Below are positions 7,259-12,452 of a stretch of 12,452 bases of DNA, piece after piece. The DNA comes from a virus. Its lineage: Duplodnaviria > Heunggongvirae > Uroviricota > Caudoviricetes. The notes below the pieces were generated by a model. The model was not told the DNA's origin. It did no database searches and saw nothing but the letters and a program-made list of their open reading frames with translations. Within the stretch, counting starts at the first letter, position 1. Every line of letters starts with the position of its first letter. The position numbers were made by a program, and so were the translations under genes. The stretch is from positions 1 to 12,452 of IMG/VR virus record IMGVR_UViG_2703718808_000018. One strand, given 5' to 3'.

Positions 7259-7667
7259 ACACATCCGTATGGCGATGAATGCCTGGGCATATCCTGATGG
7301 TGAGAAAGTTCCCGCAGCTGAAATAGCCCGGACTTATTTCGAGCTGGGGATGACGTTCCCGGAACTGTACGACGACAGCCATCCGGAAGCCCTGGCTCGT
7401 AATACCCAGAAAATTTTCCGCTGGGTGGAGAAGGACACGTCTGATGCTGTTGAAAAAATTCAGGCGCTGTTACCGGCGATCGAAAAGGCGATGCCGCCTT
7501 TGCTGGTGGCCCGTATGCGCAGTCACAGTTCTGAATATTACCGGGAGATCGTCGAACGACGGGATCGGCTGGTGAAAGATGTGGATGATTTTGTCGCTGT
7601 AGCGATCGCCTGGGGCACCCTGACTAACAGTGGTGGTCAGCCTGGTAATGCTGTTGTTGTGCATTGA
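7242..7667 (+). CDS. YdaT-like protein (Rac prophage family)
   Basis: 141-aa ORF starting MKIKHEHI..., which matches the N-terminus of Rac YdaT as I remember it. It overlaps the end of the cro-like gene by 17 bp. Confidence 0.75.
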   Translation: MKIKHEHIRMAMNAWAYPDGEKVPAAEIARTYFELGMTFPELYDDSHPEALARNTQKIFRWVEKDTSDAVEKIQALLPAIEKAMPPLLVARMRSHSSEYYREIVERRDRLVKDVDDFVAVAIAWGTLTNSGGQPGNAVVVH

Positions 7668-7735
7668 CCAACAATATTTATACCGGATTTCTTCCGGAAG
7701 TTCGTGGGTAAAGTTCGGTATCAGAAGAGGTGAGT

Positions 7736-8767
7736 ATGGCTAATGCCTGGCTCAGATTGTGGCATGACATGCCAAATGACCCCAAGTGGCGAACGATTGC
7801 CAGGGTATCAGGACAGCCAATCGCAACAGTGATGGCAGTGTATATCCACCTTCTGGTGAGCGCGTCACGAAATGTCACGACATGTCACGGCGTGTCACTA
7901 CGTGGTCACATTGATGTCACGACGGAAGATTTAGCAAGTGCGCTTGATGTGACGGAAGACGTAATTGATTCAATTTTGCATGCAATGCAGGGGCGGGTTC
8001 TGGATGGTGACCTTATTTCCGGATGGGAAAAACGTCAGGTGCTGAAAGAGGACAATGGTAACGTTTCGCAAACGGCAAAATCCCCGGCAGAGCGTAAGAG
8101 AGCGCAGCGGGAGCGGGAAAAGCTGCGGAAACATAATGCTGATTGTCACGATGAGTCACGACGTGTCACGCATCTGTCACGACAAGTCACGACAGATAAA
8201 GATACAGATACAGAATTAAACCCCACACATAACGCGCGCGAGAGTATTCCGACCAGTGAGTCGAATGGTGCGCCGTTGCAGACAGCCGAACCTGAATACC
8301 TGGACGGCCTGAGCGAACCGATCGGGAAATTTTCGATGACTACTGTCTGGCAGCCGTCGCCGGATTTTCGACAACGGGCAGCAGTGTGGGGTATGGCTCT
8401 GCCTGAGCCGGAGTTTACACCTGCTGAGCTTGCCGCATTCCGGGATTACTGGATGGCGGAGGGGAAGGTTTTCACGCAGGTTCAGTGGGAGCAGAAATTT
8501 GCCCGTCACGTGCAGCACGTCAGGGCACAGGTAAAACCAGTCAGCAAGGGGGTAAGCCATGCAGCATCAGGTGGCACGGCATCACGGGCAGTTCAGGAAA
8601 TCCGGGCAGCACGCGAACAGTGGGAACGTGACAACGGATTTATCAGCAACGGAAACGGCCTGGAAGCTGTGGGAGCTTATGGGGGAGGTGTATTCGAACC
8701 GCTGGACTCAGAAGAACGGGGCCGCACCTTCGAAGCTCTGGATTGCCCAGATTGGTGCGATGACTGA
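7736..8767 (+). CDS. Replication initiation protein (lambda O-like role; YdaU/DUF1376-type N-terminus, DnaT-like C-terminal region)
   Basis: ATG at 7736 with AAGAGG upstream (the ORF track starts at GTG 7730). The N-terminus AWLRLWHDMPNDPKWRTIARVSG is typical of DUF1376 prophage replication proteins. The gene contains two clusters of phased direct repeats (candidate iterons) and is followed by a P-like gene. Confidence 0.8.
   Translation: MANAWLRLWHDMPNDPKWRTIARVSGQPIATVMAVYIHLLVSASRNVTTCHGVSLRGHIDVTTEDLASALDVTEDVIDSILHAMQGRVLDGDLISGWEKRQVLKEDNGNVSQTAKSPAERKRAQREREKLRKHNADCHDESRRVTHLSRQVTTDKDTDTELNPTHNARESIPTSESNGAPLQTAEPEYLDGLSEPIGKFSMTTVWQPSPDFRQRAAVWGMALPEPEFTPAELAAFRDYWMAEGKVFTQVQWEQKFARHVQHVRAQVKPVSKGVSHAASGGTASRAVQEIRAAREQWERDNGFISNGNGLEAVGAYGGGVFEPLDSEERGRTFEALDCPDWCDD
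7863..7921 (+). repeat. Iteron-like cluster 1: six direct copies of GTCAC(G) at 10-11 bp phasing
   Basis: GTCAC starts at 7864, 7874, 7884, 7894, 7905 and 7916, all in the same orientation and inside the initiator ORF. Confidence 0.6.
8144..8191 (+). repeat. Iteron-like cluster 2: five direct copies of GTCACG at 10-11 bp phasing, followed by an A+T-richer stretch
   Basis: GTCAC starts at 8145, 8155, 8165, 8176 and 8186, followed by GATAAAGATACAGATACAGAATTAAA. This is about 280 bp downstream of cluster 1 within the same ORF. Confidence 0.6.
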
Positions 8768-9221
8768 ACAGCAAATCCGTCTGGTCTGCCGTCAGTGCAT
8801 GGACCGCTGCCGGGCGGGTGAAACGTGGCCCCCGGACCTGGCTGAGTTTGTTGCGCTGATTTCGGAGAGTGGGGCAAATCCATTTGGTCTTACGGTGGAT
8901 GCAGTGATGGAAGAGTACCGGCGCTGGCGCAATGAATCCTGGCGATACGACGGGAGTGATAAATACCCGTGGCCACAGCCTGTGCTGTACCACATCTGCC
9001 TCGAAATGCGTACCAGAGGGATTGAGCGCCAGATGACGCAGGGTGAGTTAAAACGACTTGCGGAACGGCAACTGACGAAATGGGCAAAGCATGTTGGTAA
9101 CGGGATGAGTGTTCCGCCAGTGCGACGACAACTGGAAGGGGCGAAACACCCGCAAGGGCCAACGCCAATTGAACGGCTGAAACAGGAATACGAACGCCGG
9201 AAGGCAGCTGGTTTTATTTGA
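8760..9221 (+). CDS. Replication protein P-like (DnaB helicase loader)
   Basis: The C-terminal two thirds align with lambda P as I recall it (PPDLAEFVAL / YPWPQPVLYHI / ELKRLAERQL versus lambda PSPGQFVAWC / YPWKSNAHYWL / ELRRKAADEL). Stop at 9221 is firm; start is uncertain. ATG 8760 overlaps the initiator stop (ATGACTGA); the same frame is open back to ATG 8679 and ATG 8559, which would give a lambda P-like length but a ~200-bp overlap. Confidence 0.7.
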   Translation: MTEQQIRLVCRQCMDRCRAGETWPPDLAEFVALISESGANPFGLTVDAVMEEYRRWRNESWRYDGSDKYPWPQPVLYHICLEMRTRGIERQMTQGELKRLAERQLTKWAKHVGNGMSVPPVRRQLEGAKHPQGPTPIERLKQEYERRKAAGFI

Positions 9222-9254
9222 ATCTGAGAAACGATTTTGTCGGAGGAAATTTTA

Positions 9255-9971
9255 ATGGAAACTGTATTTGACGCACTGAAAGCACTGAAAAGAGCCTCTT
9301 CACAGGTAGTGGCGGCCCGCCTTGGAATCAGCCGTGAAGATGCGGTCAACGAACTGTGGAAACTGAAGCGCCGCGGTGAAGCGGATAACAAGGGTTCGAT
9401 GTGGTGGCTGATTCAGGCTGGTGAAAGTGAACCGGTGTCACCGGTACCGAAAGTGACAGCGCAAATGCTGATTAAGGCGATTGAACAACATGGCCCACAA
9501 ACGGCAGATGAGCTGGCACTGATGTTCGGGATTACCTCCCGCCGGGCGAATTCATCGCTGGCCATGGCAATCAGCAAAGGGCGTCTGATTCGCGTGAATC
9601 AGGGCGGTAAATTTCGTTACTGCATACCGGGCGCTGATTTACCGGCAGAGCCGGAAGCTGCATCCGTAGCGGAAACAGATGGTAAAGCCTTTCCTCAGCC
9701 AGCAGGTGTTGCGTTACCAGTCCGGGAAACGACGACACAGGAAGAAATGAAAACAGAAATCGTGGAAGACATTGTGAAGTTACAGCCATCGGTCACCGAA
9801 ACGAAAGCAGATGACCTGATTCTACCATCGCTGCATGTGGCTAACCGCGAGCTGCGCCGGGCAAAAGGTCAGGTTCAGAAGTGGGAGCGTGTCTGCGCCG
9901 CGCTGCGGGAACTGAACAAACACAGGGATATTCTCCGGGATATTACCGCCACCAGAGAGCTGCTGCGGTGA
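9255..9971 (+). CDS. Winged-helix DNA-binding protein with two tandem wHTH-like modules and a C-terminal coiled coil (hypothetical)
   Basis: ATG at 9255 with GGAGG 8 nt upstream (the ORF track starts at TTG 9237). Residues ~1-55 and ~75-135 look like two repeats of a helix-turn-helix plus wing, and the C-terminus ([33 protein letters not shown]) is predicted helical. Confidence 0.75.
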
Positions 9972-10285
9972 GTGGCTGGAAGAAGTGGCGCTGGGCGGAA
10001 ATTATGATACTCCGGCAGTGTGCGGGAACGATGACAGTCGAAAGCATCGGCAGTCTGATTGGCCGTAGTGGGGCTGCCGTCAGGACGAAAGCGCGGGAAC
10101 TGGGTATCTGCATGATGTTACGGGGTGATTATCACCAGTCAGCCAAATGTTCACAGCGTGATATTGAGCTGGCGCGGCAACTGCATCAGCGTGGCGTACC
10201 CCGACGGGAAATTGCCGAAAAGTTTGGGATGAAGTTGGGCGCAGTGAATAACTACGTTTATTTCGACAGGAGGGTTCAGGCGTGA
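9968..10285 (+). CDS. Small putative DNA-binding protein (HTH-like segments), hypothetical
   Basis: Proposed GTG start at 9968 overlaps the preceding stop (GTGA); alternative ATG at 10004. The ORF track's start at 9881 lies inside the previous gene. C-terminal [19 protein letters not shown] is HTH-like. Stop at 10285 is firm. Confidence 0.55.
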
Positions 10286-10587
10286 GGGTGAGAATTTATA
10301 TCGCCGGTCCGATGACGGGATATGAAAATTTCAACCGTGAGGCGTTTCACAAGGCGGAAGAAGCACTGAAACAGGAAGGGCATACCGTATTAAATCCCGC
10401 AGTACTTCCGGACGGGCTGACTCAGCCACATTACATGGATATTTGCATGGCAATGATTCGTTGTGTGGATGCGGTTTATATGCTGAAAGGCTGGCAGCGG
10501 TCGGCAGGCGCTAAGGCAGAGCTGGCACTGGCGGAGAAACTGGGGCATGCAGTTATTTTCCAGGAGGCAACCAGTGAGCGAAATTAA
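10282..10587 (+). CDS. DUF4406-like (nucleoside 2-deoxyribosyltransferase-like fold) protein
   Basis: GTG start overlapping the preceding stop (GTGA), with AGGAGGG 7 nt upstream. The N-terminal IYIAGPMTG motif and overall size fit the DUF4406 small Rossmann-like proteins common in prophage nin regions. Confidence 0.75.
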   Translation: MRVRIYIAGPMTGYENFNREAFHKAEEALKQEGHTVLNPAVLPDGLTQPHYMDICMAMIRCVDAVYMLKGWQRSAGAKAELALAEKLGHAVIFQEATSERN

Positions 10588-10734
10588 TTACCAGGAACTA
10601 CGGCAGGTGAAAGAGAAAGCATAATCCAGAACTGAATAATTAAAATCAGCACTGTAAATAAAATTTAATCCTTAACCGGAGGGATTCCTGCACCCTCAGA
10701 ACATCAGGAGACCGCCCGGCAGGGCGGTAGTGAA

Positions 10735-10917
10735 ATGCGAAAGTTCAAAATAATTATTGAAACGGGAATCGCCGGTGGAGATTTCGAGGATGAATTCGAA
10801 GTGAATGATGATGCGACGCCTGATGAAATTCATAACGAAGCAAAAGAAATTTTCTTTAACTACTGCAATTACTCATATCACGAAATAAAAGACGAAGAGG
10901 AAGAACAAAATGGCTGA
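10735..10917 (+). CDS. Hypothetical very acidic small protein (60 aa, about 18 D/E versus 5 K/R)
   Basis: ORF with ATG at 10735. An AGGAG (10706-10710) is separated from the ATG by a 7-bp GC-rich hairpin (10711-10728). The ORF lies inside a segment bounded by 23-bp direct repeats. Confidence 0.5.
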   Translation: MRKFKIIIETGIAGGDFEDEFEVNDDATPDEIHNEAKEIFFNYCNYSYHEIKDEEEEQNG

Positions 10918-11086
10918 TTTTGGTTCAACTAAATACAACGTCAGTTTTGAAGAATGGCATGAACTGTTAATGGACTATGCAGAGTTACGTGGTGGCAGTG
11001 CTGCTGATGCTGAAGCATGGCGTGATGATTATGAAGCAGGAAAAACTCCGGTCGAAGCATATTGTGATGAGTGGGGCGATGAATGA
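10910..11086 (+). CDS. Hypothetical very acidic small protein (58 aa; MADFGSTKYNVSFEEWHELLMDYAELRGGSAADAEAWRDDYEAGKTPVEAYCDEWGDE), below the ORF-track cutoff
   Basis: Hand-translated. ATG at 10910 overlaps the stop of the previous acidic ORF (ATGGCTGA); GAAGAGG lies upstream; stop TGA at 11084-11086. Confidence 0.45.
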   Translation: MADFGSTKYNVSFEEWHELLMDYAELRGGSAADAEAWRDDYEAGKTPVEAYCDEWGDE

Positions 11087-11517
11087 GCGAGATTAATTAT
11101 CAGGAAGGGCATGAAACGGCTGGTCAGCCAACTGAAAAAAGCGAAGCCGGACTGCAAATTACCGGATAAGGCGATGGACTACCTGAAGCGAAACGGACTG
11201 ATAAACGAGGAGAATATTTTACGATGACCTGGCCTGAAGCGTTCATAACGGTAGGAATTGCAATGGCGGTGGCGCTGGTGGTGTATTCGATTTGCCGCTG
11301 GGGATAAAAACGGTTTGCGGGGAAAGAAGAGTTAAGTAGAATTGCTGCGGGTGCTTGAGGCTGTCTGCCTCGGGCATGCCGACGTAAGGCAGACAGAGAA
11401 AAGCCCCAGTTAACATTATGCGTCTTGCAGGACGCTTAACATTAATCTGAGGCCATATCTATGACTTGCACACTTAGATTAGCCTCTTATGCGCCGAAAG
11501 GCAAGGAGCAGCAGGCT

Positions 11518-11673
11518 ATGAAGCAGCAAAAGGCGATGCTAATCGCCCTGATCGTCATCTGTATTACCGTCGTTGTAACGGTAGTGGTAACGAGGAAAGA
11601 CCTCTGCGAGGTACGAATCCGAACCGGCCAGACGGAGGTCGCTGTCTTCACAGCTTACGAATCTGAGAAGTAA
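11518..11673 (+). CDS. hokD: Hok/Gef-family type I membrane toxin (HokD/RelF-like)
   Basis: 51-aa product MKQQKAMLIALIVICITVVVTVVVTRKDLCEVRIRTGQTEVAVFTAYESEK has the Hok/Gef signature: one transmembrane helix, then ...TRK.LCE.R.R.G..EVA.F.AYES.K. ATG at 11518 has AAGGAG upstream; the ORF track's longer form from 11461 is an in-frame upstream extension. Confidence 0.85.
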   Translation: MKQQKAMLIALIVICITVVVTVVVTRKDLCEVRIRTGQTEVAVFTAYESEK

Positions 11674-11741
11674 GAGACCCGGCGAGGGAGAAATCCCTCG
11701 CCACCTCTGATGTGTCAGGCATCCTCAACGCACCCGCACTT

Positions 11742-11768
11742 AACCCGCTTCTGCGGGTTTTGTTTTTT
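11742..11768 (+). terminator. Rho-independent terminator downstream of the hok-like gene
   Basis: AACCCGC-TTCT-GCGGGTT (7-bp stem) followed by TTGTTTTTT. A perfect 9-bp GC-rich hairpin with a GAAA loop (GGCGAGGGA-GAAA-TCCCTCGCC, 11681-11702) precedes it, just after the hok stop. Confidence 0.65.
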
Positions 11769-11839
11769 CCTGGCATTCTGGTTTACAATTCGCACGCCGG
11801 CCTGAACAACTGGCACCTGCTGTGTCACCGGAGAACCCG

Positions 11840-12112
11840 ATGGCGCAACGTATAAAATCCCACAATTCTGAAGCCGTCCCGGCCATTAAGCGGGGGCGGC
11901 ATTCGCACGTATTTAAAACCGACTGGTACCAGCATCCCCCATGCACTGAAGAACAGGCCGAATGGCTGATTCAGTGTTACCGCAGGCGCGGATACGAGGT
12001 TAAGAAAGCCATCAGCCTCGATTATCGTCACTGGATAATCTCTGTCAGGCTCCCTTATTCCGAACATCCACCGCGTCCGTCCCGCACATTCCAGCAACGT
12101 ATCTGGAGGTAA
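11840..12112 (+). CDS. Hypothetical protein (90 aa)
   Basis: ATG at 11840 with GGAG 7 nt upstream (the ORF track starts at GTG 11822); stop TAA at 12110-12112. Basic protein with no recognised domain. Confidence 0.55.
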   Translation: MAQRIKSHNSEAVPAIKRGRHSHVFKTDWYQHPPCTEEQAEWLIQCYRRRGYEVKKAISLDYRHWIISVRLPYSEHPPRPSRTFQQRIWR

Positions 12113-12113
12113 C

Positions 12114-12452
12114 GTGCGGGTATTACTTCGACCTGTTCTGGTGCCGGAACTTGGCCTGGTGGTCCTTAAGCCCGGACGCGAATCACTGCCTGTTTTTCAT
12201 TGCGGCAGGGTGCTGGTGGAGCCGGAACCGAAAAACATGCGCGGTCTGCCGTCCGGAGTCGTTCCTGCCGTTCGCCAGCCGCTGGCAGAGGATAAAACAT
12301 TACTGCCATTTTTCAGCGATGAGCGGGTTATTCGTGCAGCAGGTGGTGCAGGTGCACTGTCTGACTGGTTATTACGTCACGTGAAATCCTGCCAGTGGCC
12401 ACACGGCGATTATCATCACAGCGAAACAGTCATTCACCGTTATGGTACCGGC
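12114..12452 (+). CDS. Hypothetical protein, 3'-partial (runs off the window end)
   Basis: Frame open from GTG 12114 (GGAGG just upstream) to the window end, 113 codons with no stop in my hand translation (MRVLLRPVLVPELGLVVLKPG...CQWPHGDYHHSETVIHRYGTG). Not in the ORF track because it is incomplete. Confidence 0.4.
   Translation, partial: MRVLLRPVLVPELGLVVLKPGRESLPVFHCGRVLVEPEPKNMRGLPSGVVPAVRQPLAEDKTLLPFFSDERVIRAAGGAGALSDWLLRHVKSCQWPHGDYHHSETVIHRYGTG

Follow-up and report, generated by a model that had tools for sequence, protein, structure and literature searches.

We analyzed a 12,452-nucleotide (nt) stretch of a tailed virus (Caudoviricetes; IMG/VR record IMGVR_UViG_2703718808_000018, positions 1 to 12,452), hereafter the window, and focused on its Hok/Gef-family toxin gene and the control elements that surround it. 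An initial annotation of the sequence had described the toxin gene and the structures in its leader and tail, had recognized neither a mok-like leader frame nor a convincing promoter for the antisense RNA Sok, and had suggested a relF-like copy with reduced regulation, a silent toxin or a toxin under unrecognized control.

The hok gene, its mok frame and the Sok antisense gene

The hok open reading frame (ORF) encodes 51 amino acids (aa) and covered the full Pfam model HOK_GEF (PF01848; 80.1 bits, cut-off 22); it also matched PHROG 251, 'MokW-like host killing', at 108 bits. Its product was 88% identical to HokW, 84% identical to HokC/Gef and just 45% identical to Hok of plasmid R1, with 19 invariant residues, both cysteines included, common to all four proteins. 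In a genome with 100% identity over 11300-11800, it is annotated as a Hok/Gef family protein (WP_198406609.1). The full-length mRNA was predicted to fold with a minimum free energy (MFE) of −182 kcal/mol (z −8.7 against dinucleotide shuffles). Together with the Pfam score, this bore out the description of a Hok/Gef gene with a structured leader and tail.

A mok leader frame was also present. From an ATG at 11461, 70 codons run into hok in the same frame, the first 19 of them upstream of the hok start. This frame had been missed because the earlier search was made in another reading frame, whereas mok lies in the frame of hok itself. The mok Shine-Dalgarno (SD) sequence, GAGG, lies 8 nt upstream of the ATG and is the counterpart of the GAGG that serves R1 mok (PMC9841398).

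To place these elements in a comparative frame, we used an alignment of 17 loci from four genera (Escherichia/Shigella, Kluyvera, Photorhabdus and Erwinia). A single-protein query for related loci had returned 16 loci, of which L008 (a 275-nt contig) and L010 (no match to the Rfam family RF01794) were left out of the alignment. The hok −10 hexamer and the Sok −35 hexamer were conserved in 17/17 loci, the ucb box AAGCCCC in 16/17, and the mok ATG, the hok SD AAGGAG and a Sok −10 of the form TAnnnT in 15/17 each. The two exceptions for the hok SD read AAGGGG (L005) and AAGGA followed by a gap (L019), and the one for ucb reads AAGGCCC (L016, a Shigella locus with a disrupted hok frame). The mok SD region was TGAGGC or CGAGGC in 16 of the 17 loci.

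The frame of mok relative to hok varied among the loci. Ten loci have the two start codons 57 nt apart, in frame, and five have them 58 nt apart, the switch being a 1-nt indel; the remaining two loci had spacings of 55 and 56 nt. An intact mok in the +1 frame was present in four of the five loci with 58-nt spacing, the exception being L012 of Kluyvera ascorbata, where ATA replaces the mok ATG. In R1 proper, the two starts are likewise 58 nt apart and the frames differ (mok T117/G118, hok G176; PMC9841398), whereas the window and an R1-type IncFII plasmid copy have 57 nt and a shared frame. What counts is that the first 19 mok codons are translated, the Mok peptide itself being of no consequence (PMC9841398), and the variation in frame fits this published conclusion.

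On the opposite strand, we identified a gene for a Sok-type antisense RNA of about 71 nt. Positional homology to sokW and sokC indicates that a Sok gene is present at the locus, with the transcript itself a prediction. The mok, hok and sok features of phage 933W map onto 11461, 11518 and 11469-11399 of the window, respectively, the last being the annotated sokW misc_RNA, on the minus strand. The predicted RNA consists of a single-stranded 15-nt 5' tail (11469-11455), a hairpin spanning 53 nt (11454-11402) and a U tail. The 5' tail is complementary to the mok start codon region and the hairpin covers the mok SD; Sok overlaps the mok start by 9 nt, the same overlap as in K-12 sokC/mokC.

Several features of the fold assign it to the minus strand. 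The Sok fold was predicted at −27.6 kcal/mol (z −5.1), and in 17/17 loci the antisense strand folded 5.7-12.9 kcal/mol more stably than the sense strand over the same segment. Some pairs of the consensus hairpin, including an invariant one, are U.G or G.U and would be A.C mismatches on the sense strand, and four pairs of the hairpin show compensatory double changes. The antisense-only wobble pairs, the compensatory changes and the better antisense fold therefore indicate that selection acts on a minus-strand RNA.

The Sok promoter reads TTGCCT-17-TAATCT, with its −35 at 11504-11499, a 17-nt spacer, its −10 at 11481-11476 and a predicted start 7 nt further on. The −35 adjoins the complement of the hok SD and has two bases in common with it. 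In a weighted scan, this was the top minus-strand sigma-70 site within 11300-11800 (8.27 against 5.16 for the next), and only 12 sites scored as high on both strands of the whole 12.4-kb window. The −35 was TTGCCT or TTGACC in all aligned loci. The earlier negative result on an antisense promoter was wrong; the site was missed because TAATCT fails a strict consensus scan.

Experimental work on a close homologue bears on this promoter. In a study of the hokW-sokW locus of Sp5, Takada et al. detected SokW by Northern blot (PMC8621323), with a probe homologous to 11439-11468 of the window. A −10 mutant of SokW lost antitoxin activity, and antitoxin was provided in trans by an Sp5 fragment homologous to 11367-11521 of the window (PMC8621323). 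The mutated hexamer of that 'pro-less' construct, TAACCT, is homologous to the Sok −10 of the window; comparing primers YO-421 and YO-422 with the 933W sequence, we deduced the change to be CTAACCTA to CGAGCCGG. HokW was toxic in the same study (PMC8621323).

Folding elements of the hok mRNA and relation to known loci

The weighted scan placed the hok promoter joint top among the plus-strand sigma-70 sites of 11300-11800, and a TAnnnT hexamer occupies the columns of its −10 throughout the alignment. The promoter is presumably weak and constitutive, as judged from its sequence. The 5' end of the mRNA, by homology with R1 and with the starts of the Rfam model, would lie at about 11347-11350, and the 3' end in the U tract of the terminator.

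The covariance search that had been proposed as a check gave a clear match. RF01794 aligned over its full length (model positions 1-157 of 157) to 11349-11523 at 113.3 bits (gathering score 59, E 1e-25), within the range of 86-130 bits of the other loci. In a scan of the whole window at gathering thresholds, no RNA family other than RF01794, and no DicF, was found. Although RF01794 is named 'sok', it models the sense-strand hok leader: in K-12, its match (L003 502-654, minus strand) lies opposite the annotated sokC. We therefore rejected a reading of the plus-strand match as a sense-strand Sok, and the strand of an RF01794 match should not be taken as that of the Sok RNA.

The two ends of the mRNA are complementary. 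The tac element GCGGGUGCUUGAGG is complementary to CCUCAACGCACCCGC (11723-11737) in the fold-back inhibitory element fbi, with a perfect 9-nt complement (11346-11354 and 11730-11738) 375 nt apart, which is paired in the MFE structure, and with an additional UUGAGG/CCUCAA pairing. The pairing covaries, GGGUGC/GCACCC being replaced by GGGCGC/GCGCCC (T/A to C/G) in three Photorhabdus loci. Above tac stands a hairpin noted earlier, which was confirmed: its perfect 10-bp repeat, CTGTCTGCCT and AGGCAGACAG (11361-11370 and 11387-11396, 16-nt loop), is the core of a 21-nt imperfect repeat, and one of its pairs appears as AU, GU, GC and UA over the aligned loci (four double-sided changes). In the consensus fold of the 17 leaders, this hairpin sits on top of a tac/ucb stem. 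Part of ucb pairs with the mok SD region (the GGC of GAGGCC) in the full-length MFE structure. By homology with R1 (A70-C72; PMC9841398), ucb would sequester the mok SD in the closed form and pair with tac in the open form.

The 9-bp GC hairpin and the intrinsic terminator described earlier downstream of hok were likewise found. The arms of the GC hairpin, GGCGAGGGA and TCCCTCGCC (11681-11689 and 11694-11702), are conserved across loci with a G-C, G.U, A-U series. By analogy with R1, this would be the protective 3'-terminal hairpin of the processed (truncated) hok mRNA; in R1, disrupting the 3'-terminal stem-loop destabilizes hok mRNA (PMC9841398). The terminator consists of a hairpin at 11742-11759 followed by TTGTTTTTT. 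The features are collected in Table 1.

Table 1 Features of the hok/mok/sok locus in the window
Feature	Position	Strand	Basis
hok mRNA promoter, −35 TTGCGG (11315-11320), 16-nt spacer, −10 TAGAAT (11337-11342), predicted	11315-11342	+	weighted scan
Full-length hok (mok-hok) mRNA, predicted	11347-11768	+	Rfam match, MFE
tac element GCGGGUGCUUGAGG	11347-11360	+	complement to fbi, MFE, covariation
10-bp hairpin, upper part of the conserved 5' tac stem-loop	11361-11396	+	inverted repeat, consensus fold
Sok-type antisense RNA, about 71 nt, predicted	11399-11469	−	homology to sokW/sokC, fold
ucb (anti-SD) box AAGCCCC	11401-11407	+	conservation; role by homology with R1
mok SD GAGG	11449-11452	+	alignment
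mok leader frame, 70 codons, in frame with hok	11461-11673	+	ORF listing, mokC/mokW geometry
Sok promoter TTGCCT-17-TAATCT, start about 11469	11476-11504	−	weighted scan, conservation, Sp5 homology
10-codon micro-ORF MRRKARSSRL*	11489-11521	+	TGA overlaps hok ATG
hok SD AAGGAG	11503-11508	+	alignment
hok toxin gene, 51 aa	11518-11673	+	Pfam, PHROG, identity to HokW/HokC
9-bp GC stem-loop	11681-11702	+	inverted repeat, alignment
fbi (fold-back inhibitory) element CCUCAACGCACCCGCA	11723-11738	+	MFE, alignment, inverted repeats
Intrinsic terminator of hok mRNA	11742-11768	+	terminator scan, inverted repeat

We then compared the cassette with characterized relatives. The hokW/mokW/sokW loci of 933W and Sp5 (VT2-Sakai) were 88-89% identical to it at the nucleotide level over the whole cassette, the value for 933W being 88%. 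The 933W genes mokW (213 nt) and hokW (156 nt) have the same in-frame 70-codon mok layout, and the position of Sok, the Sok −35 TTGCCT, and the tac, ucb and fbi sequences are the same as in the window; a 27-aa ORF upstream is shared as well. Experimentally, hokW-sokW is a toxin-antitoxin pair of type I that depends on RNase III and Hfq (PMC8621323). The differences are few. The Sok −10 is TAATCT in the window and TAACCT in hokW-sokW, and several bases differ in the region of the Sok 5' tail and mok start, matching on both strands by construction. The window has a canonical terminator directly after fbi, where the 933W sequence diverges. In the window, the cassette follows the replication genes, within the nin region, whereas that of 933W is found towards the end of the record (58.4 of 61.7 kb).

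In K-12, mokC (210 nt) and hokC (153 nt) share one stop codon, and mok is in frame with 19 upstream codons, as in the window; the RF01794 score is 118 bits. The K-12 locus differs in a shorter Sok hairpin (a deletion of roughly 18 nt) and a different Sok −10 region, and it lacks fbi, having IS186 directly downstream, whereas the window copy is complete. The archetype, R1 hok/mok/sok, has the same architecture, element order, GAGG mok SD and 70-codon mok with 19 upstream codons, as well as tac/fbi, the 3' hairpin and the terminator. In the R1-type locus, a Sok promoter TTGCGC-17-TATCCT falls in the same alignment columns as that of the window. Apart from the low Hok identity and the 58-nt spacing, R1 differs in that its locus is on a plasmid and that of the window in a prophage.

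Taken together, the sequence and its alignments make it almost certain that the locus belongs, in intact form, to the hok/mok/sok type I toxin-antitoxin family and within it to the hokW/hokC (gef) subgroup, as a self-contained cassette with its own predicted promoter and terminator. As far as its sequence tells, the cassette is complete, canonical and ordinary, and closely related to hokW-sokW of Shiga-toxin phages, which has been studied before. Loci of this kind, and with nearly this sequence, are already known, and no family-defining feature visible in the sequence fails.

The carrier of the cassette is the early-right (nin) region of a lambdoid Stx2 prophage of E. coli. Positions 11300-11800 were 100% identical to the chromosome of Shiga-toxigenic E. 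coli (STEC) strains, such as EH41 and 2012C-4431. In EH41, the prophage is integrated at a site adjoining potC. Its order begins with integrase, excisionase, exonuclease, dicB, a RelE/ParE toxin and a cI-like repressor; on the other strand follow a cro-like gene, a YdaT-family gene, replication genes, small nin-type genes and Hok, and then, 3' of Hok, DUF968, RusA, a DUF1133-family gene, tRNAs and stx2AB. The window holds the integrase-to-hok half of this prophage. RefSeq annotates the Hok coding sequence alone at the locus, with neither a mok nor a sok feature; both could be added by homology. Beyond correct annotation, the significance is small, as the module is standard and hokW-sokW has already been characterized.

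Control, biological role and alternative readings

Every element of the cassette is present, conserved and foldable, and we drew the likely dynamics by homology with R1 hok/sok and Sp5 hokW-sokW. The weak TAGAAT promoter would yield a stable full-length mRNA in which tac is locked to fbi and the mok SD is sequestered, and which would be neither translated nor bound by Sok. Slow trimming from the 3' end to the GC hairpin would remove fbi; the leader would then refold into the tac/ucb stem, exposing the mok SD and start codon, and translation of the 19 mok codons upstream of hok would open the hok SD and permit Hok synthesis. Short-lived Sok, transcribed convergently from its own promoter, would use its free 5' tail to pair with the mok start region, and the resulting duplex would block mok translation and presumably be cut by RNase III. 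If the supply of Sok stopped, upon loss of the element or induction of the prophage, the stable processed mRNA would be translated and the 51-aa Hok would damage the inner membrane. Toxicity, Sok-dependent decay mediated by RNase III, and the contrast between unstable Sok and stable hok mRNA are known from the homologues (PMC8621323, PMC9841398) and would carry over to this cassette by analogy.

The same machinery may do another job than stabilizing the prophage by post-segregational killing. It could aid the lytic cycle, with Sok lost on induction and Hok helping lysis and phage release, or it could act in abortive infection directed at other phages. In Sp5, induction with mitomycin C removed SokW in a RecA-dependent manner, HokW appeared about 1 h before endolysin, and deletion of hokW-sokW halved phage release (PMC8621323). 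The placement of the cassette in the window, co-oriented within the early-right operon and between the replication genes and the RusA and DUF1133-family genes, also agrees with such a role. However, the support for a lytic role comes from Sp5 rather than from this allele or prophage position, the Sp5 effect was modest (two-fold), and stabilization and lytic roles are not mutually exclusive. We consider a role other than stabilization a serious possibility, though somewhat short of an even chance.

The position of the cassette also allows a more specific proposal. It lies in the early-right operon and points the same way (the order being a cro-like gene, replication genes, nin genes and hok), and induction could therefore drive read-through across it. 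Such antiterminated read-through might silence the convergent Sok promoter by transcriptional interference, while also supplying hok RNA without the native tac 5' end. We regard this as unlikely. If true, read-through would be a direct mechanical link from induction to Hok release, and could explain the RecA-dependent loss of SokW in Sp5.

Several observations weigh against an intact cassette and, in part, favor a relF/hokD-like or silent hok copy without Sok and mok control, or one under unrecognized control. A strict sigma-70 consensus scan found no promoter on either strand, and the Sok promoter matches only 7 of 12 consensus positions. The position weight matrix behind the weighted scan, built from consensus frequencies, is rough. 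The NCBIfam Hok models gave sub-threshold matches only (50 against a curated cut-off of 73). The single-sequence MFE structure of the 3'-truncated mRNA has a local tac hairpin at its 5' end rather than the textbook tac/ucb stem, and the predicted open conformation therefore rests on the comparative fold. The results on transcripts, processing and toxicity cited here are those of the homologues, and extend to this allele by analogy. RefSeq's annotation of Hok alone points the same way as the strict scan.

The strict-scan result is nonetheless poor evidence of absence. Its threshold of at least 4/6 matches per hexamer excludes the Sok −10 TAATCT, which has 3/6, whereas in the weighted scan the Sok promoter comes first on the minus strand and the hok promoter joint top on the plus strand. 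Simple consensus scans miss both promoters of the hok/sok family, and 'no promoter found' is weak evidence for a missing antitoxin. Furthermore, the cassette has a complete leader, a mok frame, a promoter and a hairpin for Sok, fbi and a terminator, and all of these align with functional loci, whereas known inactive chromosomal copies are visibly different. K-12 hokC (L003) has lost fbi, with IS186 directly downstream, and the Shigella flexneri locus L016 has a disrupted hok frame. L012, without the mok ATG, is a further example of a decayed copy.

K-12 hokD, which we take to be the distal gene of the relBEF operon, is presumably a hok ORF without a hok leader, mok or sok; in the window, the leader is complete and mok, the Sok promoter and fbi are present, and we rejected a relF/hokD-type assignment. 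A canonical Sok-like RNA and a mok frame were both found at the level of sequence and homology, and the suggestion of a reduced, silent or otherwise controlled toxin was not borne out; we consider such a copy very improbable. A further hok homologue, at 801-950 of L010 (Kluyvera sp. CHPC 1.2972; 76% aa identity), had no RF01794 match at the gathering threshold in its flanks of 800 nt, in contrast to the other full-length loci, and may be a leaderless or diverged hok copy.

The 10-codon micro-ORF whose stop overlaps the hok ATG (ATGA, 11518-11521) had been reported correctly. Its ATG arises from a single C-to-T change in this allele only, the codon being ACN in 16/16 other loci, in 933W and in the R1-type locus, and inspection of the sequence found no SD upstream of it. 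We rejected it as a substitute for mok, as its ATG is not conserved; it is probably an incidental, allele-specific by-product, for which a functional role is unlikely. That it ends in ATGA on the hok start might suggest a second leader, beside mok or in its place, that would link translation to hok outside the control of mok and Sok, but, with its unconserved ATG and lack of an SD, a location within the mok frame and the Sok promoter spacer, and Sok-triggered, duplex-directed mRNA decay that would remove it anyway, this is the least probable of the alternatives and hardly credible.

Adjoining genes

A 27-aa hydrophobic ORF (MTWPEAFITVGIAMAVALVVYSICRWG, 11224-11307, plus strand) lies just upstream of the hok promoter. 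Its ATG is the exact point at which homology to 933W sets in, with 81% aa identity over 26 residues, and the ORF is also found upstream of hok in E. coli L006 (96%). It thus seems to travel with this hok subgroup. It had no Pfam, NCBIfam or PHROG match and lacks a RefSeq annotation; a small membrane protein is one possibility, and another is that it merely belongs to the left arm of the cassette.

Further upstream on the plus strand, a 58-aa ORF (10910-11086) matched positions 76-137 of 143 of PHROG 519, and a 38-aa ORF (11111-11227) matched only the C-terminal ends of PHROG 660 (157-193 of 193) and PHROG 924. This suggests that the small ORFs in 10910-11227 are gene remnants, marking mosaic recombination junctions that adjoin the cassette. 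Directly after the hok terminator, a promoter-like TTGTTT-18-TACAAT (11760-11789, plus strand) ties for the best plus-strand score in 11300-11800. Downstream of it lies a 96-aa ORF (11822-12112; PHROG 1212, unknown function) with no NCBIfam match.

Elsewhere in the window, a RelE/ParE-family toxin (95 aa) and a 63-aa upstream partner (5970-6448, minus strand) adjoin the cI-like repressor, and a YdaT-family gene (7242-7667, plus strand; named from the near-identical EH41 prophage annotation) follows the cro-like gene. Counting these RelE/ParE and YdaT-family genes, the prophage has at least two toxin-type genes in addition to hok and Stx2, which is typical of STEC lambdoid prophages. A dicB homologue lies at 4129-4317 on the minus strand.

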